Origin: Candidatus Levyibacteriota bacterium
GTDB taxonomy: Bacteria; Patescibacteriota; Microgenomatia; Levybacterales; UBA12049
DNA length: 64,000 bases
Assembly (NCBI GenBank): GCA_016432345.1
Contig: CP066685.1
Coordinates: 624,236-688,235 of the forward strand
Direction: 5' to 3'
Both the position numbers and the translations under genes were made by a program. Shown here one piece after another: positions 5,687 through 60,609 of the stretch. How positions within the stretch are numbered: the stretch's first letter is position 1; each line of letters begins with the position of its first letter. The notes under the pieces were generated by a model. That model made no database searches. It had not been told where the DNA came from and was given only the letters and a program-made list of their open reading frames with translations.

Positions 5687-5715
5687 TTGACTTTTGCATA
5701 TCCCTCTGCTAGATT
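5687..5715 (+). promoter_or_regulatory. sigma70-like promoter candidate upstream of the T4SS-like operon
   Basis: TTGACT (5687-5692), 17-nt spacer, TAGATT (5710-5715). Confidence 0.3.
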
Positions 5716-5728
5716 GCAAGTATAAACT

Positions 5729-5756
5729 GCTGCCCATAAAAAGGCAGCTTTTTTTG
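5729..5756 (+). terminator. intrinsic-terminator-like hairpin between the promoter candidate and the pilin-like gene
   Basis: GCTGCC (5729-5734), 8-nt loop, GGCAGC (5743-5748), followed by a T7 run. Confidence 0.35.
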
Positions 5757-5801: not shown

Positions 5802-6086
5802 ATGGGAAATAATATTCCAGGATACAACTCAGCTCAACCAATACAATTTCAAAATCTTGATGCTCTCCTGTGGGGTGTTGTTAAAACTTTACAGTATTAT
5901 TCACTTCCAGTCATGGCTTTATCAATTGCAGTACTAGGCATTGCACTCATTGCTAGTGGAGATGATACCGAAAGAAAATCCAAGCTTCGTGGTTGGATCT
6001 TTAACATTTTGATTGGTGGTTTGTTGGTATTTGGCGCAACAACGTTGGCATCAATACTCAAACAATTCTTGGGTGGTGCAGCCTAA
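5802..6086 (+). CDS. VirB2/TrbC-like pilin-type small membrane protein
   Basis: 94 aa with a strong RBS (GAAAGGAGGAAGG) upstream. It has two hydrophobic helices separated by a short charged loop (GDDTERKSK), which is the VirB2/TrbC topology. First gene of the operon that contains VirB4. Confidence 0.55.
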   Translation: MGNNIPGYNSAQPIQFQNLDALLWGVVKTLQYYSLPVMALSIAVLGIALIASGDDTERKSKLRGWIFNILIGGLLVFGATTLASILKQFLGGAA

Positions 6087-6119
6087 AACTAACCGTTTTA
6101 ATGACCTTGTTTTCAACTT

Positions 6120-7895
6120 ATGAAAATTGTTGCTTTTGCGGGCTTTATTGTCATATCTTTATTCTTTCCTTCTTTTGCCTATGCCCAAACAGCCAGTCCT
6201 ACTCCTACGCCACAACCAGCTCCTGTTATCCAATGGACAAATGAATTTACTGTCCAAAATGAACCATCCTCTGTTATCTCTTTACTGAAAAATTTTATTG
6301 AAGGCTTTGACTCTTTTTTAGGAGGCTTTATCTTTTATACTCCTGATCCATTGGCTTCGACCATTAAATTAAAAGATGACTCAGAAATACCAGGCGTTGG
6401 TAAATACCGAGATATTTTCTATCAAATAGCAATTCCTATCCTGGCAATCATTATTGCCGGGATTGCGATGGCAAAAATTGGCATGGATAACACTCATGAA
6501 TTAAAGGCCTTTGCCATCAGATTTTTAATTGTTATAGCTTTGTTTTTAACAGTGCCACTCGTTCTTTCCTACAGCATCCAGTTTAATAATCTGCTTGTTG
6601 CTAAAATATCAGATACCCAAAAGTTTACCGTCTTTTTAGATGACTATTTTGATAAATCTCAGGAGAAAATAACAGCGGGTGAGAGTTCTGAAAGCTTTGG
6701 TATTCCCTCATTTGATCTTTCTTTAAAAAGCGGTATTTTTAAATCCCTCGGCACGTTTATTGTCCAAATATTCTTATTTGCCCTCACATTTTTATTCCTC
6801 CTGTGTGGCTTTGTCTATTTAGGATTTCTATTTATTATTCGTTTTGCCACTCTGTTATTTTTAGGCATTATTTACCCTGTGATCTTACCTTTTGCTCTAT
6901 CTGAACGAACGCAACCCATTGTCTACTCCTTCTTTAAAACCTGGTTTACCTTTCTTATTCAACAGCCTGCTTTTGTGTTAGGTTTTGCCATTGCCACAGA
7001 TATTTTTAGCGCCATCCTAAATGCCAAAGGCCCAAGTGTTGGAATGTTATTTTTCTACACAGGATTCTTGTTTTTCTTAGGAGGTGTTAATATGTTGGTT
7101 GCCAGAATTTTTGGCGATGTGTGGACAGCAGCATCAACCAATATGGTAGCAGCTATTTCTGCCAGGACTGTGACACAACCAATTTCATCAACCTTTGGAG
7201 ATTTCAAAAAAGGCTTGCTGGGAGGAAGTGTCTCAAGCTTGGTTGGTAGACAAGTGAGAGGATTTGCCAGTGGAACTAAAAAGAAAGAAGAGGATACTAG
7301 TTCTGGTGGAACAGGTTCTAACCAGCCTTCTTCTATACCTAATTCTTACGTTTCCTCAAACAACAATCAATCAGGCGGTAGTAAATACGCCCATCCAACA
7401 AAAGAGGGATTAAGTGTTCCGGTGTTTTCTCAAAAACTGGCTAACAAAGGATTACGCGTTGAACCAATTAATCAAAAACAAGGAGTTGTCAGTGTAACAG
7501 GTGAAGCATTTAAGTATCAGGATAACAAAACAGGCATGACTTCATATTATCCAACCAGAACAGAGGCAATCCAAGATGGCGTACCAGACAAGAAATTAGA
7601 AAAAGTAAATTTGCAGGATGCCCAGTTTATTGATCTATCCTCTTTTGGCAAGTTTAATCCTAATCCCCATAATTTTAATGCCATGCAGGAATCCAAGAAA
7701 AAAGGCAAAGAATTAAACTATGCCTTTATTAACAAGTCCAGTCCTCCACAAAAAGTAAGAAACTTTTTAGACATGGCAAAGGAAAGAAACTCCGCTTATG
7801 GTATCCAGGGAGTAATTGTAGAACGCCAAGCAGCCAAAGGTTCTGATCCAGTAATTAGGATGTATTCCCAAGATAACAAAGGAGGAAAATCATGA
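6120..7895 (+). CDS. VirB6/TrbL-like polytopic membrane protein with hydrophilic C-terminal extension
   Basis: 591 aa. It has a signal-like N-terminus, at least 6 predicted TM helices, and a ~200-aa Ser/Asn/Gly/Lys-rich tail. The call rests on its operon position between the pilin-like gene and VirB3/B4-like genes; its stop overlaps the next start (ATGA). Confidence 0.55.
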   Translation: MKIVAFAGFIVISLFFPSFAYAQTASPTPTPQPAPVIQWTNEFTVQNEPSSVISLLKNFIEGFDSFLGGFIFYTPDPLASTIKLKDDSEIPGVGKYRDIFYQIAIPILAIIIAGIAMAKIGMDNTHELKAFAIRFLIVIALFLTVPLVLSYSIQFNNLLVAKISDTQKFTVFLDDYFDKSQEKITAGESSESFGIPSFDLSLKSGIFKSLGTFIVQIFLFALTFLFLLCGFVYLGFLFIIRFATLLFLGIIYPVILPFALSERTQPIVYSFFKTWFTFLIQQPAFVLGFAIATDIFSAILNAKGPSVGMLFFYTGFLFFLGGVNMLVARIFGDVWTAASTNMVAAISARTVTQPISSTFGDFKKGLLGGSVSSLVGRQVRGFASGTKKKEEDTSSGGTGSNQPSSIPNSYVSSNNNQSGGSKYAHPTKEGLSVPVFSQKLANKGLRVEPINQKQGVVSVTGEAFKYQDNKTGMTSYYPTRTEAIQDGVPDKKLEKVNLQDAQFIDLSSFGKFNPNPHNFNAMQESKKKGKELNYAFINKSSPPQKVRNFLDMAKERNSAYGIQGVIVERQAAKGSDPVIRMYSQDNKGGKS

Positions 7896-8701
7896 AAAGT
7901 GTGCGAATTTATAAAGATGATATTAGAACCCATATTCTACGAAGTTTGTTTTTTACCGATACAGCATTAGTGGTTATAGGCAGTATTGTGATTGGAGCAC
8001 TACTGTACTTTTTATTCGTCTATGTTTTCCATTCTTTTAATTGGGGCTACTATATTTCCTCGCTATTTTTAGGCGTTCTTTGTTTTATCCTTTTTATTAC
8101 CCAACGAATTGATAATCAGCCAATATTTAAAGTAGTGCCAAGAGCAATCAGGTTTACTACAGGGAAGAAAAATCAACGCTTCGCTGATTTAGAAGATTAT
8201 TTTGTTGATTTTACGATCAAAGATAACTTGATTGTGCGAGACAACACCATTATTGGGGTCTATGAGATAGAACCATTTGATGTAGCTCTTTTGAATGAGC
8301 AAGATAGAGAACATTTTTATGTCAAATTAAAACAGGCTATTCACATTCTGTCTTCCCAGATTCAACTGATTGTTAAAAAAGACCAGGCAAAAACGACAGA
8401 TTACTCAAATCACTTTTTCTCCCTCTATGAAAGTTCCTCCAAGAAGCGGGAGCAACTGATTAATCAATACCTTGAAGACCTAACTACTATTATTGATGAA
8501 AATCACTTTATGATGACACGTCACTTCGCAGTCTTATCAATCCCTTGTGACCCAACAAAGCCAAATAGCTTAGTCCAGGGAGTCAAAAGACTTAATGATC
8601 TTTCACTTCGTTTTGCTCAATCCCTAGCTCTTTGTAATATTTCTATCCAGGCTTTGGAAAATGAGCAGTTAAAACACTTTATGAAGGAGACGCTGCGATG
8701 A
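7892..8701 (+). CDS. VirB3/PrgI-like membrane protein with VirB4-N-terminal-like extension
   Basis: 269 aa with two N-terminal TM helices. The following segment (IGVYEIEPFDVALLNEQDREHFYVKLKQAI) resembles the N-terminal domain usually found in VirB4-family ATPases. Start and stop overlap both neighbours. Confidence 0.5.
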   Translation: MKSVRIYKDDIRTHILRSLFFTDTALVVIGSIVIGALLYFLFVYVFHSFNWGYYISSLFLGVLCFILFITQRIDNQPIFKVVPRAIRFTTGKKNQRFADLEDYFVDFTIKDNLIVRDNTIIGVYEIEPFDVALLNEQDREHFYVKLKQAIHILSSQIQLIVKKDQAKTTDYSNHFFSLYESSSKKREQLINQYLEDLTTIIDENHFMMTRHFAVLSIPCDPTKPNSLVQGVKRLNDLSLRFAQSLALCNISIQALENEQLKHFMKETLR

Positions 8702-10896
8702 GCAAAACACAAACAACAAACCTACCAGTAAAAAGAGGCAGAGGCAGACCACGCAAAACTGACCAACCAGTAACTCAATCTGTTATTCGTAAACGAACAC
8801 CAATTACCAAAGAAGTAGTCGAAAACTTTAATTCTTTTCGGATGACCGGGGTATTAAAAGAACAAGTACAGCTTTTAGAACATCAAAAAAGTTACGAAGA
8901 AAATGAACTCTTAAAACTCAAGCGGGAATATGAGCTGATTAAAAAGAGGAATGAAGGACTAGAAACCATTGAAAAGCACTTCTTCAACGGAGAATCGAAA
9001 ATCCCTCATAATGCCATTACAAATGTCCTAAAACAGGAGATTAAAAGACTGATGGGCATTGTTACTACTCAGGAGGAAATCATTAAAAAAGAGCCGTTTA
9101 TGACTACCAGGGTTCCACTTCTGCAAAAACCCAGTTTTATTAAAACCAGGCATCCTATTAAGTTAGTCAAAAACTTCTTTAAATTCCAGAAAGAATTAAA
9201 AGACTATGAAAAAGCAGTGTTAAATTCTTCCCAAGTACCATTCCATTTAACTTTAGAGAAAAATGGTGAAGGAATACATCTTGATAACGATTCCGGCAAA
9301 TCATACAAAAGCGAATACATTAAAGAACGTAATGCATATATTGAAGTTGGAGAAAAACTCAAGCGGTTTTATTATCTGGCTGACATTCCAGCCTACTTAT
9401 CCCCATATATTTTCTTTCGGCTTTTAACTTCATCCTTGCCTTTTACCTTGAGTATCTTTATCGAGCCATCCCCAAGCAGTGAGCTGCTTAAAAAAGCCAG
9501 ACAAAGGCAATCTGTGTTAGAAGTCCAGCAAAACGAACGGGTGAGGAGTGGCAAAATTAGAGATCAGCAGATTGATAAAAATATTGAGGAAGTCACTGCT
9601 TTTATTGATGAACTCATCCATGAAGCAGAAAAAGGTGTGGTGTATTCGCTCTACTTGCAGCTTGAAGCACAAGATGAAAAAGAATTAGCCAACCTTCATA
9701 AACAACTGCAAAACTTAACCAGTTCAATGGATGTAACTTTTAACCAATACACCTTTGCCCAAAAAAGAGCATTTAAAAACTTTCTGCCCTTTACCCAGGA
9801 TCATTTGCAGGAAAACAGGATTTTACAATCAACAGCAGTTTCCTACATGCTGCCCTTTGTCTCAAAACAGCTTCAAGATCCAAAAGGAATTTTTATGGGA
9901 GTAAATACCTACAATAATTCCTTAGTCTTCCTTGATCCTTTTACCTCTCGGAATAACAACGTTAATATCTTTGGAGTTTCAGGATCTGGAAAAAGTGTCA
10001 CCGCTAAAATACTGATGAACAGATTATATATGCGGGGAGTTCAGATTATTGTGATTGACCCAGAAGGTGAATATGTGTCACTTGCCAAAGCTTTAGGCGG
10101 TGAAGTCATTCAATTCTCCAGAGAGAATGGCATTAATCCATTCTATATCCAATCTTCCAAAGAAAATGATATCTTAGACCATATTTCAACGCTTAAAACC
10201 TTTTTTAAATTCTTTATTCCACCGTCCCATTATGATGGATCGTTGTTGGATGAAAAATTAATTGAACTGTACGACAATGGCACACCGCATTTTGATAATC
10301 TTTTAAAACTTTTAAGGAAAAGCCCAATGAAACAGGATTTAAGCGTGCTCTCAACTGGAAGTTTGCGGGGAGTCTTTAACTCCAATAGAAAATTAGAACT
10401 GGATTCAGACATCATTGTTTTAGATTTACATGATTTGAAAAAAGACGAGAAACGTGATCCGGCCATGTATTTACTCACTTCTTTGATCTGGAACTTAGTC
10501 AACAAAAACAATGACAGAAAACGGATGTTATTTATTGATGAAGCTCACAAACTGTTAGTTGATCCAGAAGTAGCGATATTTTACCGAGAATTAGTAAAGC
10601 AGGCCAGAAAAAGAAATGTGGGAGTTGTATCAGTCACCCAGGATGTGGAAGACTTTTTGCATAATGAATATGGTAAAGCCATTATCACCAACTCCGAAAC
10701 AAAGATACTTTTGAAACAATCTTATGCTGCATTATCTGAAATCGGCACCATTTATCCGATGACTGATGAGGAAAGATCTCAACTAGGACATCTAGAAATA
10801 GGTGAGGTATTTCTATTTCGGGAAGGAGAGCATATTCGGCTCAATGTGTTAGTGCTGCCGTTTGAAAAACCTCTGGTATTTTCTAACCTTGAGTAA
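8698..10896 (+). CDS. virB4: VirB4/TraC/PrgJ-family conjugation ATPase
   Basis: 732 aa. Walker [20 protein letters not shown], Walker B MLFIDEAHKLL, VSVTQDVEDF. The N-terminus carries KRGRGRPRK (AT-hook-like) and a long coiled-coil-like Lys/Glu-rich stretch. Confidence 0.9.
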   Translation: MSKTQTTNLPVKRGRGRPRKTDQPVTQSVIRKRTPITKEVVENFNSFRMTGVLKEQVQLLEHQKSYEENELLKLKREYELIKKRNEGLETIEKHFFNGESKIPHNAITNVLKQEIKRLMGIVTTQEEIIKKEPFMTTRVPLLQKPSFIKTRHPIKLVKNFFKFQKELKDYEKAVLNSSQVPFHLTLEKNGEGIHLDNDSGKSYKSEYIKERNAYIEVGEKLKRFYYLADIPAYLSPYIFFRLLTSSLPFTLSIFIEPSPSSELLKKARQRQSVLEVQQNERVRSGKIRDQQIDKNIEEVTAFIDELIHEAEKGVVYSLYLQLEAQDEKELANLHKQLQNLTSSMDVTFNQYTFAQKRAFKNFLPFTQDHLQENRILQSTAVSYMLPFVSKQLQDPKGIFMGVNTYNNSLVFLDPFTSRNNNVNIFGVSGSGKSVTAKILMNRLYMRGVQIIVIDPEGEYVSLAKALGGEVIQFSRENGINPFYIQSSKENDILDHISTLKTFFKFFIPPSHYDGSLLDEKLIELYDNGTPHFDNLLKLLRKSPMKQDLSVLSTGSLRGVFNSNRKLELDSDIIVLDLHDLKKDEKRDPAMYLLTSLIWNLVNKNNDRKRMLFIDEAHKLLVDPEVAIFYRELVKQARKRNVGVVSVTQDVEDFLHNEYGKAIITNSETKILLKQSYAALSEIGTIYPMTDEERSQLGHLEIGEVFLFREGEHIRLNVLVLPFEKPLVFSNLE

Positions 10897-10901
10897 TATG
10901 T

Positions 10902-11687
10902 ATGAAAGTTCTCTCCGTTGCCAACAAAGCTAGACAACTTAAAAACGACCCCATTGGCTTTATTCTTGATAGCCTTATTGCCATTATTGTTAATTTGTTT
11001 ATCCCTATTCCACTAGCTGGAACGCTTGTTTCTGAATTTATCTCTCAATTCAAAGCACCACTCCTTGGGTTATTAGCATCACTAGTGCTGCTGGCTATTT
11101 TTATGATTACCGTAGTTGGCACTATTGTTACTTTACCCATTATTGCCTCCACTGGATTTTTCTCACAAATCTTTTCACCAAACCTTCCTGGTGATAATCC
11201 TTTACATATCCCACCAGACACCAGTTTTGTAGCAACCAATGTGCCAAAACAAAACCCTTTTGGTGGATCAGGTATGTCATACACTACTACCACAGCCTAT
11301 TTTATGGATCCAGATTACTATCTTAAATTTGGTAAAAATCATATGGGTATTGATTTTATCCCTTCGGATGAATACTTTAAAAGCAGTCAAACTTACAAAA
11401 ATACCCAAAAGGTTGTGATTTTTGCTACCATGAATGGGCGTGTGAGGCATTATGTAGATCAATATGGCGGTGAAACAGTGGAAATTACTAACACTGACAA
11501 TTCAGTTAAGGTGTTATATGTTCACTTTAGTATAGTCTTAGTAGAATCTGGCAGTGTAGTACCCGGAACACCAATTGGCATTATGGGAGAAACAGGCTTT
11601 GCTACAGGTGAACATCTGCATTATGAGATACAAACCAAAGATGGTAATAACTGGATAGCAACAAATCCGTTAAATTATATACAATAA
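10902..11687 (+). CDS. membrane-anchored M23 (LytM-type) peptidoglycan hydrolase
   Basis: 261 aa with N-terminal TM helices. M23 motifs HMGIDF and GETGFATGEHLHYEI. It occupies the place of a VirB1-type cell-wall hydrolase. Confidence 0.85.
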   Translation: MKVLSVANKARQLKNDPIGFILDSLIAIIVNLFIPIPLAGTLVSEFISQFKAPLLGLLASLVLLAIFMITVVGTIVTLPIIASTGFFSQIFSPNLPGDNPLHIPPDTSFVATNVPKQNPFGGSGMSYTTTTAYFMDPDYYLKFGKNHMGIDFIPSDEYFKSSQTYKNTQKVVIFATMNGRVRHYVDQYGGETVEITNTDNSVKVLYVHFSIVLVESGSVVPGTPIGIMGETGFATGEHLHYEIQTKDGNNWIATNPLNYIQ

Positions 11688-11691
11688 ACGT

Positions 11692-12480
11692 ATGGAGAAT
11701 GACAAAAATACACTAACAAAAAAACAAAGACGAGTATTTCAGCTAGGAGTATTTATTCTTCTGGTGCTTTTTATGATTGGCTTTTTCTTCTTTAATCAGA
11801 AAAAAGAAGAGCAACCTACATTAAAAAATACCACCGTGTATTTACAAGATGATAAATTGAAGGTATTTGACGATGCTTATTCCTTTGAGTATCCGGATCG
11901 GATGTCGCTTCATTATCCATACTTTTTAGTGATTAAGCCTGGTATCCAGACAACGTATATTTACAATCTTGAACAAAAGAAAAAGGAAAAAGAGGTCAAA
12001 GAAGTATTACTGGATTATTCAACTATTGGTCAGTTATATACCAAAGGCAAAACAACATTTCTAAATAACCAAGATTTAGGAGTACTTTGTGAGAAAGGCT
12101 TTATTAAAAGCACTGATGATGTGCTTTGCTTAACAAAATATGATGTTAATGCAGTACAAAATATGTTAATTACTATTAATCTCAAAACCTTAAAAAACAG
12201 GGATTTGTATGTTTCCAGAGGCATTCTTTCTGATGTAAAGGTGATTAATGACAAAATATATTTAGGCGAAATTGATACCCATACCCACAAAAACCATATT
12301 TTAGTAGATAAAGAGCCTATTGGCGTTCCTAACATTATATCTACAATCTATGAGATGAATGGAAAACCATATTTTGCCTCCTTTAAAAGCGAATTAAATA
12401 ACAATACAGAAAGTTATTATTTAATTGAAAATGATAAAGTTACAAAACAAAAAGGAAATAGGATTTATTTGTTTAAATAG
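11692..12480 (+). CDS. hypothetical N-terminally anchored protein, last gene of the T4SS-like operon
   Basis: 262 aa with a single N-terminal TM helix (VFQLGVFILLVLFMIGFFFF) and a beta-rich-looking ectodomain. No catalytic motif. Confidence 0.5.
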   Translation: MENDKNTLTKKQRRVFQLGVFILLVLFMIGFFFFNQKKEEQPTLKNTTVYLQDDKLKVFDDAYSFEYPDRMSLHYPYFLVIKPGIQTTYIYNLEQKKKEKEVKEVLLDYSTIGQLYTKGKTTFLNNQDLGVLCEKGFIKSTDDVLCLTKYDVNAVQNMLITINLKTLKNRDLYVSRGILSDVKVINDKIYLGEIDTHTHKNHILVDKEPIGVPNIISTIYEMNGKPYFASFKSELNNNTESYYLIENDKVTKQKGNRIYLFK

Positions 12481-12759
12481 AGAGGATTCTGAATACCAGT
12501 TAATCCACATACATTTTTAGGAGCAGACGATCCACCTATATAACCAAGGTTTAAAAAATATGTAACTTTTGATATGTCTATAGAAAATACTGTTTATAAA
12601 ATCCAGGACATTGATCTCCTGAAAAACATGAGACGCTATGCTTTAAGAATATCCCATCATCCAAAAGAAAACTCTCAATTAGAGAAAATTTTAAATCAAA
12701 TTCTCTCCGCCCTCAAATTCACGCAGTAAATTTTTGGAGAAATTTTTTGTACCTCTTTC

Positions 12760-13602
12760 TTAGCTTACTAATGCAAGAGCTTCTTCCCATCCTGTATAAG
12801 TAGGTGTCTCTGCTGTATCGACTACTTGTTGCATCGGGATATTTCTTGCTCTAAATAAAAACTGTATCAGCTCATCTTCTCTCGGTAAATTAGATTTAAT
12901 AGAAACAATAATAGCATCTCTTCTGTAGGGATCAATACTAATAGAATATACTCTACCGTCATATCTATACCCTCCACCTCCTAAAACAACATCTGTTTTC
13001 TCAATCGAAAGACCACTAGTAACTCCTCTTTCGGGCGGAATAAAAGTGAGACGGACTCTATTATCAAAACTATTAGTTCTTGGGTCAAAATGTGGAAGAC
13101 AATTTATCAAATAGTCCAACCTCCCTAATTCCCCACCTTTACGTTTTCTTACCGCAAACTTCTTAATACGTGTTGGGTCTTTCTCATCATATTCAACTCT
13201 TGTCGCAAATACGAAATCTCCCTTTTGTTTTTGCATGGTAAAAAAGACCGTGCTTTCTTTTCTTTGAGTTCCCAATACAGGCACACTACGAACTTCTAAA
13301 ATTTCCCTTGACAAGAAAGGACTTGAAGCCATCTCTCGCGTAATCTTAACTCTTGTTGGGAAAATATTTTCTTCCGCATATCTCGAAAAATCCCTAAATG
13401 GACCGTTATCGGGTCTTTCTTCTATAATTCTTTCTAAAGTGACATTTTTTGAACCAGGTCTAATAACCCTATCTACTCTTCGATCATGGCTTAGGGGTCT
13501 GACTTGCCAAGAGGATTCAACATTTCCATGTACAACAATAAGTGAAGAAGGGTTATGTTGATCGGCATGGTATAGTCCAAAACCATATTTTCGTCGTTCC
13601 AT
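12760..13602 (-). CDS. hypothetical soluble protein (orphan)
   Basis: 280-aa ORF, Arg/Glu/Pro-rich, with no TM helix or signal peptide and no recognisable motif. Confidence 0.5.
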   Translation of the reverse strand: MERRKYGFGLYHADQHNPSSLIVVHGNVESSWQVRPLSHDRRVDRVIRPGSKNVTLERIIEERPDNGPFRDFSRYAEENIFPTRVKITREMASSPFLSREILEVRSVPVLGTQRKESTVFFTMQKQKGDFVFATRVEYDEKDPTRIKKFAVRKRKGGELGRLDYLINCLPHFDPRTNSFDNRVRLTFIPPERGVTSGLSIEKTDVVLGGGGYRYDGRVYSISIDPYRRDAIIVSIKSNLPREDELIQFLFRARNIPMQQVVDTAETPTYTGWEEALALVS

Positions 13603-13704
13603 GAAAAGAAGTATAGCAAAATAAAATTTAATTTACAACTATAGGGTAGATTCGTAATACGTCAGGAGCTTAGTTTAAATCAGCTTCAAAAGCTAGCTCA
13701 TAAA

Positions 13705-14370
13705 TTAGTGAGTAATCTTTTGATACACCTCTTCCCAATTATTAGCTATCTGTAATTGTGCTTGTTGTAAGATTATTTTTCCAGTACATACTTGGCTACG
13801 TAAATAATTTTCTACTTTATCTTTTTCTCTAGCATTTAAATTAGCATTATATGGTTCTGGCCAAAGATTAGCTTCAGAGGTTGGGCTACCGCCTAGTTCT
13901 AAGGAAATTAAATGATCTTCTTCATAATCTTTAGGATTAGTATCAGAATAACCATATTCCTGAATTTGTTGAATTTTCAAATTGTTAGTGTAAGTTACAG
14001 ATGGCCTAACGGTTTTTGTATAACCAGAAACACAAATTGTTGATTGAATATTATCCTGAGTAACTTTTGGATCAATATCTCCTGGAGTACATGCCTTATC
14101 TGGTAATCCATTAGTAGATATACATCCGGTAGTTTTAATTCTTTTACCAATTGTTAAACTAGGTGTAGCAGATGGTGATGCTCCTTGTTGGTTACTAATT
14201 GGTGTAGGTGTTGGCTGAGTAACTTGAGGGTTAGTTTGTTTATTCTTAGAAACTAGAAATATAACTAAAGTAATTAAAATTAATACTCCAATTACATACA
14301 ATATTCTTCTATCAGATGACTTTCTCATTTCAATTGAAGGATATCTGTATCCTGGCTGATTATTATCCAT
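13705..14370 (-). CDS. membrane-anchored extracytoplasmic HNH-type nuclease
   Basis: 221 aa. N-terminal TM helix (ILYVIGVLILITLVIFLV), a Pro/Thr/Ser linker, then YEEDHLISLELGGSPTSEANLWPEP, a His-Me/HNH-like signature. Confidence 0.65.
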   Translation of the reverse strand: MDNNQPGYRYPSIEMRKSSDRRILYVIGVLILITLVIFLVSKNKQTNPQVTQPTPTPISNQQGASPSATPSLTIGKRIKTTGCISTNGLPDKACTPGDIDPKVTQDNIQSTICVSGYTKTVRPSVTYTNNLKIQQIQEYGYSDTNPKDYEEDHLISLELGGSPTSEANLWPEPYNANLNAREKDKVENYLRSQVCTGKIILQQAQLQIANNWEEVYQKITH

Positions 14371-14519
14371 AAAACCTAGGCAGGTTTATATAAATTTTAT
14401 CAGAAAAATTGTTCAGAAGATACTTAAGTATTTTATTAATGAAATTCTTTAAAAAGCGACAGCGAAGCTGTAAAATTAATAATTTGGCTAAAACAGCTAA
14501 ATTTTTGTATAATGAGGAT

Positions 14520-14729
14520 ATGAATGCACAACAGAGAGTTGGAAAAAAGCTCAAAAAGGTAAGAAAAGAAAAGGGATTAAGACAGGTTGATATGGCTAAA
14601 AAGATAGATTGCTCTTCCAACTGGTACGCTCAGATAGAACAAGGAAAAGTAACTAATCCTGGGTCTTTACTCATGAATAAAATTGCCAATGTGTTAGGTT
14701 TAGATCCTTCAGAAGTAGTTTTTGTTTAA
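14520..14729 (+). CDS. XRE-family helix-turn-helix regulator
   Basis: The tracked ORF starts at 14409. The HTH core (VGKKLKKVRKEKGLRQVDMAKKIDCSSNWYAQIEQGK) begins at the internal ATG at 14520, giving 69 aa. Confidence 0.8.
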   Translation: MNAQQRVGKKLKKVRKEKGLRQVDMAKKIDCSSNWYAQIEQGKVTNPGSLLMNKIANVLGLDPSEVVFV

Positions 14730-14940: not shown

Positions 14941-15408
14941 TTATAAAATCTTGCCTAGTTTTAAAAAATTGAGCATTTCCAAAGCTAAACTCCTGTCTTC
15001 TATCCTTCTCATTACTTCTAGACTCTTTGTTTGAGACAAAATATTTAAACTGCCCTCGTATAGTATATTTCTGTCAATTATCGCCAGTTTCCTGTGATGA
15101 AATCCTTTTAATAATACCATATTTATGCCTATTTCTTGACAGTTTAGTATTTCATTTGTTGCCTGATGCCTCATATATTCATCTTCATGGTCAATAGGAT
15201 CTCTAGTAATAATCGCTACTTTTACCCCATTTTGGATAAGTTTTTCAAAGATTGGATACAACGATTCCATGCGTGAGGCGGTCAAGTATGGACTTTCAAC
15301 AACAAGCTCTTTCTGGCAATTTTTTAAATCCTTTAGAAAAGCTTGATAAAATCCGTTTTCATCAAAGAGGGTAGAGGAGAAAACTGGAGGTTTCCTGAAG
15401 CTAAACAT
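14941..15408 (-). CDS. PLD-family (single HKD) Nuc-like nuclease
   Basis: HKD motif in GFHHRKLAIIDRNILYEGSLNI (H-x-K-x4-D...GS-N). I prefer the ATG at 15408 (MFSFRKPP), which overlaps the upstream stop as AATGTTTAG, over the tracked start at 15468. Confidence 0.8.
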   Translation of the reverse strand: MFSFRKPPVFSSTLFDENGFYQAFLKDLKNCQKELVVESPYLTASRMESLYPIFEKLIQNGVKVAIITRDPIDHEDEYMRHQATNEILNCQEIGINMVLLKGFHHRKLAIIDRNILYEGSLNILSQTKSLEVMRRIEDRSLALEMLNFLKLGKIL

Positions 15409-15619
15409 TAGATTCCTCCTCAGATACTTCAATAATGACGACTTTTCCGTTATAATAGGTAAAGCCAAGATCAGTGAGCTTGTGGTATGTTTGGATCAAA
15501 GAATCAAAAATTTGTTTCCACCCATCCCCGGTATGGCTCACTAAATGATATTTGTGTTTTTGGAGTCTTTTAGCCTCAAGAAATTGCAGATATTTCTTCA
15601 AAATTAAGCCTATAACCAA
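15401..15619 (-). CDS. hypothetical small protein translationally coupled to the PLD nuclease
   Basis: 72 codons from a TTG start that lies inside the tRNA-like remnant. A degenerate copy of its first ~25 codons occurs at ~19175-19250. Confidence 0.4.
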   Translation of the reverse strand: MVIGLILKKYLQFLEAKRLQKHKYHLVSHTGDGWKQIFDSLIQTYHKLTDLGFTYYNGKVVIIEVSEEESNV

Positions 15620-15640
15620 GAGACCGAGCAGGATTCGAAC
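15616..15640 (-). other. tRNA 3'-end-like remnant (T-loop + acceptor 3' strand), copy A
   Basis: The minus strand reads GTTCGAATCCTGCTCGGTCTCTTGG. No matching acceptor 5' strand or D/anticodon arms lie upstream, so this is not a gene. An identical 25-mer is at 19247-19271. Confidence 0.5.
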
Positions 15641-15659
15641 TGCTGATTAGATTGTTCTA

Positions 15660-15830
15660 TCAACCTTTTTCATTTTCAAAGTACGGATCACCAATATCCC
15701 CTTCCCAGTTATCTCCATAAAAATATTGCATTAACCCACAACATAATTTATAAACAAACACTTGTATTCTCTTTAAATCTTCATCTGACAAGTCAGGATA
15801 ATATTTTCGTATTACATCCAATGGCAGCAT
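15660..15830 (-). CDS. conserved 56-aa ORF, copy A
   Basis: Below the ORF-track cutoff. GGAGGTGA RBS 9 nt before the ATG. Sequence MLPLDVIRKYYPDLSDEDLKRIQVFVYKLCCGLMQYFYGDNWEGDIGDPYFENEKG. A same-length paralog at 19291-19461 differs mostly by conservative changes. Confidence 0.55.
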   Translation of the reverse strand: MLPLDVIRKYYPDLSDEDLKRIQVFVYKLCCGLMQYFYGDNWEGDIGDPYFENEKG

Positions 15831-15901
15831 CGTAAAAAATCACCTCCTTTATTTAAGGATGAAAGGACTATCTACTTAGATAGTAATTAAGAATAATATA
15901 C

Positions 15902-17239
15902 ATGTCCCATAGTTTGACACAAAGTTACAAATATGGTAATATTCTCCTCATGTCTCAAGAACAAAGACCTGAAAAGAACATCTGGGATCAAGCTCTTGAA
16001 GGGGTGGACTTCTCTAAACTTGATAAAGGAAAAGAGGGTGAGTACCCCACTATTTCACCTAGAGAAATTTCCGAAGCGTATGAAACTTATCCATTAAAAG
16101 GAGATTTAATGCGCCTTGCTAATGAAAATCTTAAAGAAGCTAGGGCTCAAGCGGAGGGTGCAAAACCAAGAGAAAGAAAAACTCATGATATGGGTTGGGA
16201 ATTGGCTATAGACACTCCTCAAGGTATGGTTGGACTTTGGAGTTGCTGGTTGGGAAATCAATTCTATCTAGGATTTCCTAAATCAACAAGTCGTGTTATG
16301 GATTCGGTTGACACACAAACTGTTATTAGTCTAGGAAATCATCTTAGAATAAATCAATTATCACCAAACGCCCCTTGGTGGCAACGAAAACTGCTTGATT
16401 ATCAAGGCGCTAGAGGTCAATTAGAAGAAATGTCTGATCCTGAATTAAGAGAGGCTTTAAGATTACATAGAGTTCCATTTCGTGATATTCCATTTATTCC
16501 TGTAACTGATGAATTAGTAATACAAACTTTAGGTGTTGAAAGAGCAAAACCTGTAAAACAGGTTAATGCTACTGCGGTAAATGATCCAAATTATCGTGGT
16601 GAGTTTGCAGACCCAGAAAAGCCATTAGAGCAAAATAGAGCAGGACAAATTGTAGGCTATCAAGATGCCGGAGAGAGACAATGGGCTAAATTTTATGGTC
16701 CAATGGAGCCAACAGGCGGTAGAGTTTGGGTTGATTATTCTGGTTTTCATTCTAATGGTATGCACTTCCCATATATAGATGAGCAAGGGCAACTTCAATC
16801 TTTATATTATGGTCATGATAGATCTAATGGAATTTATACCGAACAATTTAGTTTTTATAACCAGTATGCCCCAGAAGGGCCAACTGCTGATCCCGAAGCA
16901 ATCCAAAAATATAGAGATAGATTTATTAGATTGGCTGCTGAAATAGTTTTTATAATGGGCGGTCCAAAAGCTGTAAACATCGATTATGGTTATTCAATGG
17001 TACCCGAGGATTTATACAAAGAAGGTTATGAAGATATAGCTTGGCTAAAAGGAGATTTGGGAGAAAGAAAAGGATGGGGTAACGAGATAGTGAGAGGAAG
17101 AAAAGGTGATGGTACTGTAATCTTAAAGAGTGCTAATAGCTTAGTTCCTTGGTCTACTACTCTCCGTGCCCCTGTCGGAAGGTTGGCTTCTCCAGCAATG
17201 CTTGCAGATTTTATAAAAGAAGATATACTTTGGTTTTAA
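15902..17239 (+). CDS. hypothetical soluble protein (orphan, 445 aa)
   Basis: Long ORF with no TM helix, signal peptide or motif. It diverges from the copy A module. The true start may be the internal MSQEQ. Confidence 0.55.
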   Translation: MSHSLTQSYKYGNILLMSQEQRPEKNIWDQALEGVDFSKLDKGKEGEYPTISPREISEAYETYPLKGDLMRLANENLKEARAQAEGAKPRERKTHDMGWELAIDTPQGMVGLWSCWLGNQFYLGFPKSTSRVMDSVDTQTVISLGNHLRINQLSPNAPWWQRKLLDYQGARGQLEEMSDPELREALRLHRVPFRDIPFIPVTDELVIQTLGVERAKPVKQVNATAVNDPNYRGEFADPEKPLEQNRAGQIVGYQDAGERQWAKFYGPMEPTGGRVWVDYSGFHSNGMHFPYIDEQGQLQSLYYGHDRSNGIYTEQFSFYNQYAPEGPTADPEAIQKYRDRFIRLAAEIVFIMGGPKAVNIDYGYSMVPEDLYKEGYEDIAWLKGDLGERKGWGNEIVRGRKGDGTVILKSANSLVPWSTTLRAPVGRLASPAMLADFIKEDILWF

Positions 17240-19119: not shown

Positions 19120-19172
19120 AAGGAATTCTTGCGAGAACTCACGCAGTCTGTGCAATATCTCGTGAGGATCAC
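19120..19172. repeat. ~53-bp direct repeat, copy 1
   Basis: Contains the 23-mer AACTCACGCAGTCTGTGCAATAT (19136-19158), identical to 21259-21281, with similar flanks. Confidence 0.75.
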
Positions 19173-19246
19173 CCAATAATATTTGTGATTTTGTAAGGTT
19201 TTAGCTTCAAGAAATTGTGGAGAATTCCTCAAATTTAAGCCTATAA

Positions 19247-19271
19247 CCAAGAGACCGAGCAGGATTCGAAC
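19247..19271 (-). other. tRNA 3'-end-like remnant, copy B
   Basis: Same 25-mer as 15616-15640. The sequence 5' of the T-loop differs from copy A. Confidence 0.5.
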
Positions 19272-19290
19272 TAATGTTTAGGTTGTTCTA

Positions 19291-19461
19291 TCAACCCTCT
19301 TCATTTTTCCAGTCCCATCCATCACTATCCTTTTCCCAATCAGGTCCATAAAAATACTGCATTAACCCACAGCATAATTGATAAACAAATACTTGTATTT
19401 TCTTTAAATCTTCATCGGATGAATCCGGATAATATTTTCTAATTACATCTAAAGGTAGCAC
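19291..19461 (-). CDS. conserved 56-aa ORF, copy B
   Basis: GTG start 9 nt after GGAGGTGA. Sequence VLPLDVIRKYYPDSSDEDLKKIQVFVYQLCCGLMQYFYGPDWEKDSDGWDWKNEEG. Same length as copy A. Confidence 0.55.
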   Translation of the reverse strand: MLPLDVIRKYYPDSSDEDLKKIQVFVYQLCCGLMQYFYGPDWEKDSDGWDWKNEEG

Positions 19462-19559
19462 CGTTAATAATCACCTCCTTAGACAATCAAAAATTATTAA
19501 CCATAAAACTCAACCTATAGTTTGCTTTGTAGCTTCATTTAAGGTATAATATATATTCT

Positions 19560-21134
19560 ATGGGTGAAAGAATCCAACCAAACGACTTAAGTACATCTCG
19601 AGACCCTCATTTGCAGGGTCTTATAGCGCAGAATATCCAAGCTCTAGGTGAGCAACCTCTAGTTAGAGTTGTTCAAGCACTCCAAAGATTCAATGGTCCC
19701 GTAACAGTTCAAGAGAAGGATGGAACGCAAAGGGTTGATAACAACTGGCATTTAAGACAGGTCTTACAAGAATTACCAGGTTATGCAGAAGCATCGGAAC
19801 ATGCTGGATTAGCACCAGACCAAGCTGAAGGATTACTTACTCACCTACTAAACTCTACTCCATATGACTTCGAACGCAATGAAATTAATGTCTCATTACT
19901 TAAACGTTCACTTAATCAGGAAGCCGAGCTTAATCAGAGACTTACCAAAAGAGATATCGGTAGACTAAGAAGAATGATTACCATAGCAGGTAAATATGGA
20001 GTGCTCCCTCACACAATTTACGGCTATACAACAGCCCGAAGAATTGGGCTTTCTATACAAGATAGCACAGCAATGGTCATGCACCTATCTGATGCAGATG
20101 GTTCATTAGCTGGTTATACTTTTGGTTCATTTAATGAGGCACTCTCATCCTTAGCTATTGCACAAGTTGACCCTGAAGTTGTCAAAGATACTTTTGCTCG
20201 TGTAGGCGGAAGAAGACCATATTTTAGACAGGGTTTATATAGGGCACTCGAAGAAATGATTACATTTGGCTGTCCTTCAAATAGAACAAATCCCCAGGAA
20301 GTATTACAGGGACTACTCGCAAACCTACAAGAGGGTGAAGATATTGAAACGGCTATAGAAAGATATCTTAGTGAAGAACAAAGAAAACTTCCAAACGAGA
20401 ATGAAGTGGTAATTTATGAACTAGGTGAAGAAAGAGATAGCTACTTTATTCCCAAGGCTGGACATCTTGAACTCGCTGCTTTACCATACAGAACCCAGCG
20501 TGGTTTGAATGATGGAGTAAGGGACTTAGAAGAAATTGCTAGAGCTCGAAGTCATAGATGGGAATCTGTTGGTGAGGGCATGTGGATTTTTGACCCCAAT
20601 GGAGACACTTGGTATTCGTTAGGTGGTAAAACAGAAGTCCATCCAGATAGGGTTAGGCATAACTTTATTCCTTATGACGCCTCTCAACTTAGCGAAAAGC
20701 CCTATATGTTTCACACCCATCCTGAAGATTTGGAAGTAATGCTAAGAAATCCTTACGATGATTTCCCATCCAGGGAATATAGAGATCATGTTACTAAGTT
20801 TTTGTCTTCTACACCAAGCAGGGCTGATTATTCTGTGGTTGCAGATACCATTGAAAGAGCTACTTCAGAAATTCATCCTAGATCATTTATCGTTCACTCA
20901 TTAGGAATAACGGAATTCACATACCCAAATGATTTAGAAAAAATAAAAGAAATGGCTACTAAATCAAGAGACATTAGAGATCAGGCTATGTTAAATTTCG
21001 GCTGGGATTACCTTCATTGGAGACGAGATATTATCGATGAACCAACAGTAGCGAGAATGCTAATAGATGATTTGAATAAACTTCTACCCGAAGGATTCTC
21101 AATTAAATTGCATGAGCCTGGAACCAATCTCTAA
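19560..21134 (+). CDS. hypothetical soluble protein with C-terminal JAB/MPN-like metal-site motif
   Basis: 524 aa. MFHTHPED...(~30 aa)...SSTPSRADY resembles the H-x-H...S-x-x-D motif of JAMM/RadC-type domains, but with a long insertion. Confidence 0.55.
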   Translation: MGERIQPNDLSTSRDPHLQGLIAQNIQALGEQPLVRVVQALQRFNGPVTVQEKDGTQRVDNNWHLRQVLQELPGYAEASEHAGLAPDQAEGLLTHLLNSTPYDFERNEINVSLLKRSLNQEAELNQRLTKRDIGRLRRMITIAGKYGVLPHTIYGYTTARRIGLSIQDSTAMVMHLSDADGSLAGYTFGSFNEALSSLAIAQVDPEVVKDTFARVGGRRPYFRQGLYRALEEMITFGCPSNRTNPQEVLQGLLANLQEGEDIETAIERYLSEEQRKLPNENEVVIYELGEERDSYFIPKAGHLELAALPYRTQRGLNDGVRDLEEIARARSHRWESVGEGMWIFDPNGDTWYSLGGKTEVHPDRVRHNFIPYDASQLSEKPYMFHTHPEDLEVMLRNPYDDFPSREYRDHVTKFLSSTPSRADYSVVADTIERATSEIHPRSFIVHSLGITEFTYPNDLEKIKEMATKSRDIRDQAMLNFGWDYLHWRRDIIDEPTVARMLIDDLNKLLPEGFSIKLHEPGTNL

Positions 21135-21242: not shown

Positions 21243-21295
21243 AAGGAATAATTTGAAAAACTCACGCAGTCTGTGCAATATATCGTTGGGATCAC
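21243..21295. repeat. ~53-bp direct repeat, copy 2
   Basis: See 19120-19172. It also reads as TTGAAA-17 nt-CAATAT, which is promoter-like on the + strand. Confidence 0.75.
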
Positions 21296-21299
21296 TGAA

Positions 21300-21520
21300 T
21301 TGGAAATCCCAAAAGAGTCCAAAGGTTGGCTCTGCGCGGGAACGGGCGCGCAGAGCTCTGCAAAGCCCCGTTTGAATTCTGGCACAAGTCGCCGATCAGT
21401 TAAAAAGAAGTTCGAGCCGACAGTTTTTGCTCCGATTGCTAAATCGGAGCATGTATTTTTTGCAAACACAAAAGACAGATGCGCGCGATTTTTTATATTA
21501 TAATCCCGCAAGGCGGGACA
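21300..21520. ncRNA. GC-rich hairpin-dense non-coding island R1 (unknown family; orientation unresolved)
   Basis: Three strong hairpins: 21329-21356 (10 bp), 21429-21450 (9 bp) and 21504-21518 (6 bp). The core GTTCGAGCCGACAGTTTTT at 21410-21428 is shared with 26732-26750. The only ORFs here are mutually overlapping on both strands. Confidence 0.4.
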
Positions 21521-22657: not shown

Positions 22658-23548
22658 ATGTCAGAAAAATTTAGCCTCCGTTCATTCAAGCAAAAATATG
22701 GTACGCATCAAGACTGCCTCGAAGCTATTAAGCAACTTCGTTTCCCCGATCCTTTTACTTGCCCAAAATGCAATACTATGCAGAAATTTTACCCTGTAAG
22801 TGGTCGTACAGCGTATGCTTGCAACAGTTGTGGAAACCACATCTATCCCCTAGCAGGAACAATCTTTGAGAAATCTACTACTCCCTTAGACTTATGGTTC
22901 TTTGCTATGTATCTTATGACACAAACGAGAAGTGGCACATCGGCTAAACAACTTGAAAGAATGTTAGGAGTAACATACAAGACAGCTTGGAGAATGTTTA
23001 AGCAGATAAGATTGCTTATGGTACAGTCTCCATCACTTTTAGATGGAATTGTGGAGATTGACGAAACATATTTTGGTGGTAAAGGAAAAAACAGAGCCTA
23101 CCAGTGGCATGGTGGGGTAGAGGAAAAAGAAATCATTATGGGCATTGTCAAAAGGAAAGGCACAGCTTACGCAAAACATATTCCTGATACGAAAAAGTGG
23201 ACTTTAATCAATCAAATAAAACAACATGTTGATCCCAAAGCCCATGTCATGACCGATGATCTTGCTTCATACAGACATTTATACGATCATGGATTCTACA
23301 AACACTACAGCGTAAACCATTCAAACAGGGAATACGTTAGACACCACCTTTTCCATACGAATAATGTAGAGGGCTTGTGGTCGCATATAAAACGTGGGGT
23401 TTATGGTGTGTATAGGAAAGTCAGTAAAAAATACTTACAGGCATATATTGACGAATACACCTGGAGATACAATAATAGGAATTATATCGGTGGAATGTTT
23501 GATATCTTGCTAAAACAGGTTACAGAAGTTAAGATAATAAAAGAGTAA
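22658..23548 (+). CDS. IS1595-family (ISXO2-like) DDE transposase
   Basis: 296 aa. N-terminal Zn-ribbon CPKC...CNSC, then VEIDETYFGG and MTDDLASY...NNVEGLWSHIKR, typical of DDE_Tnp_IS1595. Confidence 0.9.
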   Translation: MSEKFSLRSFKQKYGTHQDCLEAIKQLRFPDPFTCPKCNTMQKFYPVSGRTAYACNSCGNHIYPLAGTIFEKSTTPLDLWFFAMYLMTQTRSGTSAKQLERMLGVTYKTAWRMFKQIRLLMVQSPSLLDGIVEIDETYFGGKGKNRAYQWHGGVEEKEIIMGIVKRKGTAYAKHIPDTKKWTLINQIKQHVDPKAHVMTDDLASYRHLYDHGFYKHYSVNHSNREYVRHHLFHTNNVEGLWSHIKRGVYGVYRKVSKKYLQAYIDEYTWRYNNRNYIGGMFDILLKQVTEVKIIKE

Positions 23549-25436: not shown

Positions 25437-26354
25437 TTATGTTGTTCCATTGACATTGATAGGTATCTCTAGCTGATTGCTATTATCTGCTTGAATAATA
25501 TCTTTTACTTTTAATATTTCATAGTGTGTCCCAATTACTTCGTTATTATAATCATAATTTACCGTTATTTTGACATTTGCTTTTAGTGAATCTCCTGGTC
25601 TAACATTTATTTCTCTTGCTTGGAATTTTCTTAGCCATTCTATGTCAATGATTTTTGCATAAATAGGGATTTTTTCGTGCCGTAACTCCCATTGTGAATC
25701 GCCTAAGTAATCTGGTTTCTTAACTTTAAGTATCATTTCTGTTTTATTTGAAATTGACTCTTTTGTCAGCAAATCCTCTATTGATTCAGGAGAAAAATTA
25801 AATTCTAAATTAAAATCAACTCTTTTTTGCTCAGAAGTAGCAAAAATAACTTTTCCTCCCTCATCTACATATTTTAGAGAATCAGAAATTCTTCTTATCC
25901 CACCAATTAGTTTCGCTGTAGGAATAGGTGAATAGGAAGGGATCCTTTTTACATCTGTTTCTTCCGCCAATTTATATAATCCATCCTCTAATTCTTTAAT
26001 TTGTTCTCGTGAAGAAATCTCAGTTTTTCCATCTAGAAATTTAATTATGGCGTATTTACCTTTTACTAAATAAGATCCAACAGCTTTTTTCCAATCCAAA
26101 TCTTTTAATCCATCATCTGGTATACTTTCTAAAGTATTTTTAAACCACCCCTTAATGGATCCTTTTTTTAAATCTTCCAGTACAGTAATGGGTTTAATTT
26201 TTGAATCAATTGAATTGACCAAATCTTCATCAACAGAATGTAATGCCTCAAGTATTTCCGATAATGTTCTAAAAGCCTTTGAGGGATTTACTTTAGTACT
26301 ATCAAATTGTATTTCTATACCAAAATCAGGTGTAAGATCAGTATTATTTACCAT
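25437..26354 (-). CDS. hypothetical soluble protein (orphan, 305 aa)
   Basis: Long ORF, Lys/Glu/Asp/Ile-rich, with no motif. Confidence 0.5.
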   Translation of the reverse strand: MVNNTDLTPDFGIEIQFDSTKVNPSKAFRTLSEILEALHSVDEDLVNSIDSKIKPITVLEDLKKGSIKGWFKNTLESIPDDGLKDLDWKKAVGSYLVKGKYAIIKFLDGKTEISSREQIKELEDGLYKLAEETDVKRIPSYSPIPTAKLIGGIRRISDSLKYVDEGGKVIFATSEQKRVDFNLEFNFSPESIEDLLTKESISNKTEMILKVKKPDYLGDSQWELRHEKIPIYAKIIDIEWLRKFQAREINVRPGDSLKANVKITVNYDYNNEVIGTHYEILKVKDIIQADNSNQLEIPINVNGTT

Positions 26355-60440: not shown

Positions 60441-60526
60441 AAACAAATCTACTTTCATTAAATCAGAAAGGGTGTATAAAAGCAACTTAAGCTGTAAAAC
60501 TTCAAATTCTGTTATAATATAGACAA

Positions 60527-60599
60527 GCGTCTGTAGCTCAACGGATAGAGCAAGTGGCTTCGAACCACTAGGTTGCGGGTTCAATTCCTGCCAGACGCG
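60527..60599 (+). tRNA. tRNA-Arg (anticodon UCG)
   Basis: Hand-folded. Acceptor GCGTCTG/CAGACGC, D-arm GCTC-AACGGATA-GAGC, anticodon arm AGTGG-CTTCGAA-CCACT, T-arm GCGGG-TTCAATT-CCTGC, discriminator G. Confidence 0.9.
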
Positions 60600-60609
60600 C
60601 TTAGCCCAC

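Follow-up and report, generated by a model that had tools for sequence, protein, structure and literature searches.

The 64-kb window analysed here, i.e. the whole stretch of 64,000 nucleotides at positions 624,236 to 688,235 of contig CP066685.1 (assembly GCA_016432345.1, Candidatus Levyibacteriota bacterium), carries a six-gene operon for a type IV secretion system (T4SS) that is centred on a VirB4 ATPase. The operon is very probably a chromosomal T4SS of the "Patescibacteria clade", a class already described in 2023–2025, and the locus would be a further member of that class. Most probably the system is vertically inherited, has a layout characteristic of Microgenomatia, and derives from the mating-pair-formation type FATA (MPF-FATA) by gain of a VirB2-type pilin and loss of the tie to a relaxase, and it serves host contact in an epibiotic lifestyle and not conjugation.

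Among 3,035 Patescibacteria genomes surveyed, 2,417 have VirB4 (Quinonero-Coronel et al. 2025, PMC12102498). Of these VirB4 proteins, 2,425, from 2,407 genomes, group in a single clade within MPF-FATA, and for 99.3% the nearest neighbour belongs to their own class. The loci are chromosomal and include TrsD as the commonest partner, VirB2-like pilins, VirB3, VirB6 and sometimes M23-containing hydrolases. Relaxases were found in just 103 of the 3,035 genomes, and VirD4 homologues, though present in 2,918 genomes, are rarely near virB4 (148 cases) (PMC12102498). The operon in the window shares with this class (PMC12102498; Southlakia SEML1_0006-0019) an MPF-FATA-related VirB4, a chromosomal, relaxase-free locus, a TrsD-like gene directly upstream and a peptidase gene directly downstream of virB4, a VirB2-like pilin and a VirB6-like protein, and it occurs in Microgenomatia, a lineage in which VirB4 is near-universal. 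It differs in having one highly conserved pilin in place of a variable pilin array, and within the window dnaA and dnaN do not adjoin the locus. Further, the product read here as a VirB3-like hairpin fused to TrsD contrasts with the survey, in which the two are distinct and VirB3 is seldom linked to virB4 in Microgenomatia; the 591-aa family can be recognised as VirB6/TrbL, whereas VirB6 is called 'scarce' in Microgenomatia; and neither a membrane-anchored propeller nor phospholipase D (PLD)-family proteins, nucleases or helix-turn-helix (HTH) proteins such as those of the PLD/HTH pair described below are mentioned there (PMC12102498).

The first-pass annotation, made from the sequence alone, regarded the operon as minimal or stripped-down, which is overstated. 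A VirB1-like hydrolase, VirB3, VirB4 and VirB6 constitute the normal core of monoderm MPF-FATA T4SSs, and to our knowledge these systems never have VirB7, VirB9 or VirB10. The oddity is rather the added VirB2-like pilin; we know of no monoderm conjugation system with a pilin of this type. Like the MPF-FATA systems of pCF10 (Prg/Pcf), pIP501 (Tra), pGO1 (Trs), the CTn2 CD1110 family and pCW3 (Tcp), the operon includes TrsD/PrgI-like elements, a VirB6-like channel and a wall hydrolase and is missing VirB7, VirB9 and VirB10; the CD1110 model and that of VirB4 from mycoplasma integrative and conjugative elements (ICEs) fit its VirB4 best, and 4AG5 is the best relative in the PDB. Unlike them, the locus has no relaxase, type IV coupling protein (T4CP), VirB8-like NTF2 protein (PrgL/TraM/TcpC) or surface adhesin, and it does have a VirB2-type pilin. 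Its VirB4 is 25–30% identical to theirs with a unique N-terminal coiled-coil, its hydrolase is of the M23 type and not SLT/CHAP, and it is chromosomal and lineage-wide, whereas theirs are located on mobile elements.

Conservation of the locus and absence of conjugation genes

A scan of GTDB species representatives gave 38 loci (L001–L038) from Roizman-, Shapiro- and Levyibacteria, WWE3 and one Saccharibacteria genome. The six genes were found by tblastn with order and orientation kept in ~30 other Microgenomatia species, the VirB4 proteins being 51–84% identical; median identities for all six products are given in Table 1. Outside the cassette, over the scanned region 1551–26354, nothing was conserved except the PLD-nuclease/HTH pair. 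With gene order kept in ~30 species while the flanks vary, the cassette has the marks of a core operon of the lineage amid fluid flanks and not of a recent island. A mobile island bounded by repeats was also considered and rejected: no att-like direct repeats flank the operon, and its GC content of 36–38% is like that of the rest of the window, which is uniform at 33–39%. The window includes housekeeping genes for cysteinyl-tRNA synthetase, phosphoglucomutase, phosphoglucose isomerase, UvrA, UvrC and the DNA polymerase III delta subunit, together with two tRNA genes, and its sole transposase gene is of the IS1595 type (22658–23548, + strand).

Two divergent copies of the cassette, with ~65–76% nucleotide identity, were seen in CALRDH010000002.1 (L010 and L016) and in CAZTFB010000001.1 (L008 and L025). 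The second copy in the latter, L025, is missing the pilin, VirB6 and TrsD genes and begins inside virB4.

All non-shadow open reading frames (ORFs) of at least 110 aa in the window were scanned with Pfam, and NCBIfam was added for the ten ORFs without a Pfam match. No relaxase, VirD4/TcpA-type T4CP, VirB11, VirB8, VirB9, VirB10 or tyrosine or serine recombinase was found in the 64 kb, and there were no matches to VirB7–10 families. A relaxase or T4CP hidden among the ORFs without a Pfam match was considered, and NCBIfam revealed none. The absence of these components and of an integrase, as noted in the first-pass annotation, therefore holds. A relaxase and T4CP immediately outside the window, which would have made the operon part of an ordinary conjugative element, were not found either; ~5 kb upstream and ~2 kb downstream of the window there is no relaxase, T4CP or integrase. 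That the operon supplies mating-pair formation to an ICE or plasmid whose DNA-processing genes lie outside the window, and serves ordinary conjugation, is highly improbable given these absences. The same is indicated by the near-universal presence of the cassette in the lineage, where it tracks taxonomy as in the published same-class figure, by the lack of a compositional anomaly and of flanking repeats, and by the rarity of relaxases in Patescibacteria genomes (PMC12102498). The poor fit with classical conjugation that had been pointed out earlier is thus borne out by the window and is in line with published work (PMC12102498, PMC10633639, PMC12857230).

The statement that there is no coupling protein holds for the window alone. 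TrwB-like queries from related loci matched in the window only the P-loop of VirB4 itself (tblastn). However, TrwB/DotL-like ATPases (E ~1e-8 to TrwB) are encoded <10 kb from the cassette in four related loci (Table 1), and TraG-D_C was identified by Pfam in 2 of 116 flanking ORFs from related loci. A coupling-type ATPase therefore lies within the repertoire of the lineage, and one may be encoded elsewhere in the same genome. Of two large ORFs that recur in the flanks and were examined as T4CP candidates, one encodes a copper P-type ATPase and the other a serine recombinase.

Products of the six genes

The region 5802–12480 contains six ORFs on the + strand and not seven genes as first reported, the first-pass annotation itself naming only six products. 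The spacing along the operon is 33, −4, −4, 5 and 4 nt, which excludes room for a seventh gene. Stops and starts overlap, as had been described, at two of the five junctions (4-nt ATGA overlaps at 7892–7895 and 8698–8701); at the remaining three the genes are 4–33 nt apart. The VirB2-like pilin, VirB4, the M23 peptidase and an anchored protein were correctly recognised from the outset, the VirB6-like assignment holds at the family level, and that of the VirB3-like product required modification (see below).

Table 1. Genes of the operon and its neighbourhood, and TrwB/DotL-like ATPase genes near the cassette in related loci. Locations are in the window unless a locus is named; percentages are median amino acid identities across species.
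Feature	Location	Strand	Length	Identity or remarks
Pilin, VirB2/TrbC type	5802–6086	+	94 aa	74%
VirB6/TrbL-like polytopic membrane protein	6120–7895	+	591 aa	62%
VirB3-like hairpin with TrsD-like domain	7892–8701	+	269 aa	54%
VirB4 ATPase	8698–10896	+	732 aa	71%
M23 peptidase, membrane-anchored	10902–11687	+	261 aa	52%
Anchored beta-propeller, modelled	11692–12480	+	262 aa	47%
Unknown protein	12760–13602	−	280 aa	Within variable slot
Membrane-anchored nuclease-like protein, HNH-like	13705–14370	−		Weak Endonuclea_NS_2 match
Xre-type HTH protein	14409–14729	+		HTH_19/HTH_3 E ~1e-10; PADLOC likeness to restriction-modification controller proteins
Single-HKD PLD-family nuclease-like protein	14941–15468	−		PLDc_2 E=2e-12; motif HxK(x4)D(x6)GSxN readable
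TrwB/DotL-like ATPase	L006: 30–1895
TrwB/DotL-like ATPase	L004: 8–985			Partial
TrwB/DotL-like ATPase	L030: 1524–4070			Another Levyibacteriota metagenome-assembled genome
TrwB/DotL-like ATPase	L035: 4262–6655

The 732-aa protein was identified as VirB4 by the NCBIfam models CD1110 (3.3e-74), Mbov_0397 (1.6e-73), TraC-F (2.4e-51), VirB4_CagE (1.5e-36) and TrbE (3e-11), and it also matches Pfam P-loop_TraG (1.4e-25). Its translation shows the Walker A motif GVSGSGKS and the Walker B motif LFIDEAH. The best match among solved structures is 4AG5, a VirB4-like protein (1.3e-33), with TrwK at 1.4e-4. At E<=1e-10 this VirB4 has 933 homologues. Identity is 69–90% for the best 120, those with names being from Roizman- and Shapirobacteria. 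The near relatives, at 51–90% identity, all come from metagenome-assembled genomes of Microgenomatia (Roizman-, Shapiro- and Levyibacteria and WWE3), in which hundreds of homologues with 65–90% identity occur. The nearest plasmid VirB4 proteins are all from Firmicutes or Actinobacteria and only 25–30% identical, and none covers the N-terminal 150–200 aa; the N-terminal coiled-coil region (up to ~residue 150–200) is conserved in the family, lineage-specific and missing in plasmid VirB4s. These proxies agree in pointing to a monoderm, MPF-FATA-related VirB4 of the Patescibacteria type. VirB4 also bears a basic AT-hook-like tail, KRGRGRPRK (8698–8760, residues 1–40). It was considered as a general DNA-binding substitute for a T4CP and rejected, as it is common to just 5 of the 120 closest homologues.

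The 94-aa pilin matches PF04956 TrbC/VirB2 with E=1.6e-7 and 31.9 bits, above the 27.9-bit cut-off, and PF18895 T4SS_pilin with E=8e-4. Two hydrophobic helices are present, a cleavable signal peptide is not obvious, and no other product of the cassette is as well conserved. A hidden Markov model built from 29 orthologues detected no second pilin copy within the window. A strong Shine-Dalgarno (SD) sequence, GGAGGA, is located 7 nt upstream of the start codon, and the pilin leader (5687–5748) includes a promoter-like site, TTGACT-17-TAGATT, followed by a terminator-like hairpin, GCTGCCCATAAAAAGGCAGC, with a T7 run. The hairpin (5729–5748) was rejected as a conserved attenuator because 29 related loci do not have it ahead of their pilin gene. 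In several of these 29 loci, the pilin gene is apparently without an SD sequence and has a −10-like box near the ATG.

The 591-aa protein (identical to NCBI HYV37_03300, 100%) has a signal-peptide-like N-terminus, ~6 transmembrane (TM) helices, a low-complexity S/G/N linker (~340–430) and a conserved alpha/beta C-terminal domain (431–588). Its own match to TrbL/VirB6 (PF04610) is borderline, with E=1.2e-3 and 19.1 bits, under the 25.9-bit cut-off. However, TrbL was matched by 28 of the 36 members of the family, over residues 108–306 and with a best E value of 1.8e-7; NCBI calls one orthologue 'type IV secretion system protein', and others have precomputed PF04610/PF19590 matches. Judged by these profile matches, the protein is VirB6/TrbL at the family level, and to that extent the earlier VirB6-like assignment stands; the 591-aa sequence alone would leave it borderline. 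Structure prediction with AlphaFold2 (AF2), which had been proposed for this and the 262-aa protein, gave a confident C-terminal domain (pLDDT >90), for which Foldseek returned no significant match in the PDB, and a poorly modelled TM region.

The 269-aa protein has itself no Pfam match. It matches the NCBIfam model of mycoplasma-ICE VirB4 (VirB4_plasma) over positions 12–220 (E=1.2e-10) and TrsD/TraD (E=8.8e-4), and identical copies of it carry a weak precomputed match to PF26593 (TraC-like). Within the family, 4 of 18 members match PrgI (E ~1e-3), the VirB3 of pCF10, and 5 of 18 match TraC_F_IV; a profile of the TrsD family gave no informative match in the PDB. There is a TM hairpin at residues ~24–72, the gene adjoins virB4, and the complete ORF, including the N-terminus MKxVRIYKDDIR, is kept in 32 loci. 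The protein is read here as a VirB3(PrgI)-like hairpin fused to a TrsD/VirB4-N-terminal-like cytoplasmic domain, and not as the plain VirB3-like protein of the first-pass annotation.

The 261-aa protein matches PF01551 Peptidase_M23 (E=4e-13), and the motifs HxxxD (HMGID) and HxH (HLH) are intact in the translation. The gene is directly downstream of virB4 in 33 loci, including one Saccharibacteria locus. Given these motifs, its product is probably the wall-opening enzyme of the machine, a functional analogue of VirB1.

The 262-aa protein (100% identical to NCBI HYV37_03320) has no family match in Pfam, NCBIfam or PADLOC. Its AF2 model, built on an alignment of 45 sequences, has a mean pLDDT of 91.6 and consists of a TM helix (10–35) followed by 23 beta-strands. 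The top Foldseek matches in the PDB are all beta-propellers (Lp49, WIPI3, archaeal YVTN, the designed six-bladed SAKe, BamB and SMP30), at E ~1e-5 to 1e-4 and TM-scores of 0.3–0.5, values that indicate a generic propeller fold and not a specific relative. Thus, an N-terminal TM anchor and a compact six-bladed beta-propeller are predicted. Basic residues are found ahead of the TM helix, Cys133 and Cys146 are invariant, and DsbA/VKOR is encoded in the window; together these features fit a predicted extracellular location of the propeller. A hidden VirB8 with an NTF2 fold was rejected on account of the confident propeller model, a profile search of the PDB that turned up nothing related and the narrowness of the family, for which 1.84 billion proteins yielded only 74 cluster representatives at E<=1e-3. 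The propeller gene was not found by tblastn in the Saccharibacteria locus, and from its distribution the protein is an accessory of the cassette restricted to Microgenomatia.

Variable slot and other neighbouring genes

Homologues of the PLD gene (Table 1) are convergent with the cassette and located 0.5–5 kb downstream of it in 20 loci, with a small HTH gene beside them in 17 loci; the PLD/HTH pair is associated with the cassette by synteny only. The likely true start of the PLD gene in the window is Met21 at 15408, giving a product of 155 aa with no signal peptide. The protein resembles the PLD domains of Mokosh MkoC and DISARM DrmC (PADLOC).

Between the cassette and the HTH/PLD pair lies a slot (12481–14408) that is hypervariable across loci. 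In the window it holds the gene for the unknown 280-aa protein and that for the membrane-anchored nuclease-like protein, and elsewhere it holds a gene for a MafB19-like deaminase (L001), large serine recombinase genes (L008, L025, L027, L031 and L033) or other genes. Either an integration hot-spot or a site for effector genes is conceivable.

Further downstream, a 300-nt direct repeat with 82% identity (15535–15834 and 19166–19465) lies upstream of unrelated large unknown genes (15902–17239 and 19560–21134). A regulatory RNA was considered for this repeat and set aside; its minus strand carries an SD sequence and an ATG, and it looks like a duplicated gene for a small protein. A 58-nt repeat (19120–19177 and 21243–21300) flanks the gene at 19560–21134. 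Genes for a putative phage structural protein with the LAPAL motif (25437–26354, − strand; NCBIfam 7e-29) and a phage-type metallopeptidase (31533–31991, + strand) are scattered downstream together with IS1595. The window also encodes an NB-ARC/STAND NTPase of 676 aa (39427–41457, + strand) and a WD40/beta-propeller protein of 656 aa (58641–60611, − strand). The 3′ end of the latter ORF as listed overlaps tRNA-Arg (60527–60600); hence its true start is probably further in.

Possible roles of the system

Transposon sequencing has shown that Southlakia, a member of Saccharibacteria, cannot grow as an epibiont without its T4SS genes, those for pilins included (Wang et al. 2023, PMC10633639). The Southlakia T4SS has no recognisable relaxase or coupling protein, and it was suggested that it 'may instead export proteins' (PMC10633639); a t4cp homologue was reported to be non-essential, although the T4SS is essential (PMC12102498). 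Transformation of Southlakia needs ComEC as well as type IV pili, and cells with a mutated comEC remain viable (PMC12857230); hence competence does not explain the essentiality of the T4SS. Microscopy of a cultivated member whose food is host RNA has revealed tubular structures that penetrate the host and may be T4SS pili (preprint, bioRxiv 10.64898/2026.06.21.733656). That T4SS-like loci are known in bacteria of the candidate phyla radiation while their substrates are not established, as the first-pass annotation stated, matches this literature, and its proposal of host interaction or uptake rather than conjugation agrees both with the present results and with published data (PMC12102498, PMC10633639, PMC12857230).

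Helicobacter ComB, archaeal Ced, Bordetella Ptl and Brucella VirB resemble the operon in that the VirD4 coupling protein is missing from the locus. ComB and Ced import DNA, Ptl and Brucella VirB export protein, and ComB and Ptl use VirB2-like pilins; thus, T4CP-less systems show that a T4SS can work as an importer or can export substrates delivered by Sec. Unlike the operon, ComB, Ptl and Brucella VirB are diderm systems with VirB7–10 core complexes, and their sequences are not closely related to those of the operon.

Given that T4CP-less T4SSs with pilins can import DNA, as ComB and Ced do, the operon might encode a competence-type machine that takes up environmental or host DNA for nucleotides or recombination. 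VirB4 matches the CedB and CedD models weakly (6e-13 and 5e-15) and has the AT-hook-like tail, a PLD-family nuclease recurs near the cassette, this genome has in addition the membrane-anchored HNH-like nuclease, and in class ABY1 the T4SS loci co-localise with comF/recG/radA (PMC12102498). However, ComB requires the VirB7–10 homologues that were not found in the window, the PLD protein is without a signal peptide and hence cytoplasmic, and the AT-hook is confined to few homologues. Moreover, Southlakia is transformed via ComEC and type IV pili, and its comEC mutant survives while its T4SS is essential (PMC12857230). A competence-type DNA-uptake machine is thus considered decidedly unlikely.

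Contact-dependent export of effectors, with toxins or enzymes injected into the host and the variable downstream genes as cargo, agrees with the suggestion of Wang et al. (PMC10633639), with the toxin-like domains in the hypervariable slot of some genomes, such as the MafB19-like deaminase, and with the nuclease and the unknown 280-aa protein in the slot of the window. Against it, the coupling protein, which is the usual effector receptor, was not found in the window, the Southlakia t4cp homologue is reported to be dispensable though the T4SS is not (PMC12102498), and no common secretion signal was identified. The slot also carries plainly unrelated genes, e.g. those for serine recombinases, and therefore fits an integration hot-spot better than an effector locus. 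An effector exporter of this kind is accordingly regarded as unlikely, though less so than DNA uptake.

For a vertically inherited T4SS of host contact, the reading preferred here, the following mechanism may be proposed. The VirB3-like hairpin/TrsD protein and the VirB6-like protein would form a membrane platform on which hexamers of VirB4 dock, as their homologies suggest. The M23 peptidase, with its intact catalytic motifs and fixed place after virB4, would open the peptidoglycan locally. By analogy with the role of VirB4 in R388 and F-type systems, VirB4 would pull the pilin from the membrane and polymerise it into a VirB2-type pilus or tube. More speculatively, the anchored propeller on the outer face could aid pilus assembly or host binding. 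The pilus would then touch or penetrate the host bacterium and so support an epibiotic lifestyle and not conjugation.

Within this frame, T4CP-independent access to host contents (nucleic acids and cytoplasm) is tentatively put first as the function. Effector export within the same frame is judged a weaker possibility, because the locus is without a substrate receptor, the t4cp homologue is reportedly dispensable in Southlakia, and the preprint ties possible T4SS pili to feeding on host RNA. That the pilus serves adhesion only is improbable. A more daring proposal is that the pilus is a feeding tube, i.e. a T4CP-independent T4SS acting in reverse, by which host nucleic acid or cytoplasm is drawn into the epibiont, the pilin forming the conduit, the propeller docking on the host, and the PLD protein and the membrane-anchored nuclease processing what is taken in; this is doubtful.

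Several points weigh against the preferred reading. The placement of VirB4 in the Patescibacteria clade rests on model scores and nearest neighbours, and the TM region of the VirB6-like protein was predicted with low confidence (pLDDT 50–75). All functional data are from Saccharimonadia or from the preprint, whose tubes are candidate T4SS pili. The single, extremely conserved pilin contrasts with the variable arrays of other Patescibacteria, and the pilus may differ in role here. Finally, given the four loci with TrwB-like ATPases, coupling-protein-dependent export or DNA transfer is possible for the lineage.

About 80% of Patescibacteria genomes contain a T4SS of this class, and wherever it has been tested it proved essential for epibiotic growth. 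To this the locus adds an anatomy for Microgenomatia, which includes a six-gene definition of the cassette, an assignment of VirB6, a putative VirB3-TrsD fusion, a predicted propeller, a conserved single pilin and a PLD/HTH neighbour, and these features offer concrete targets once a member of Microgenomatia is cultured. Should the pilus be a feeding tube, the operon would be central to the nutrition of a very large radiation of bacteria.

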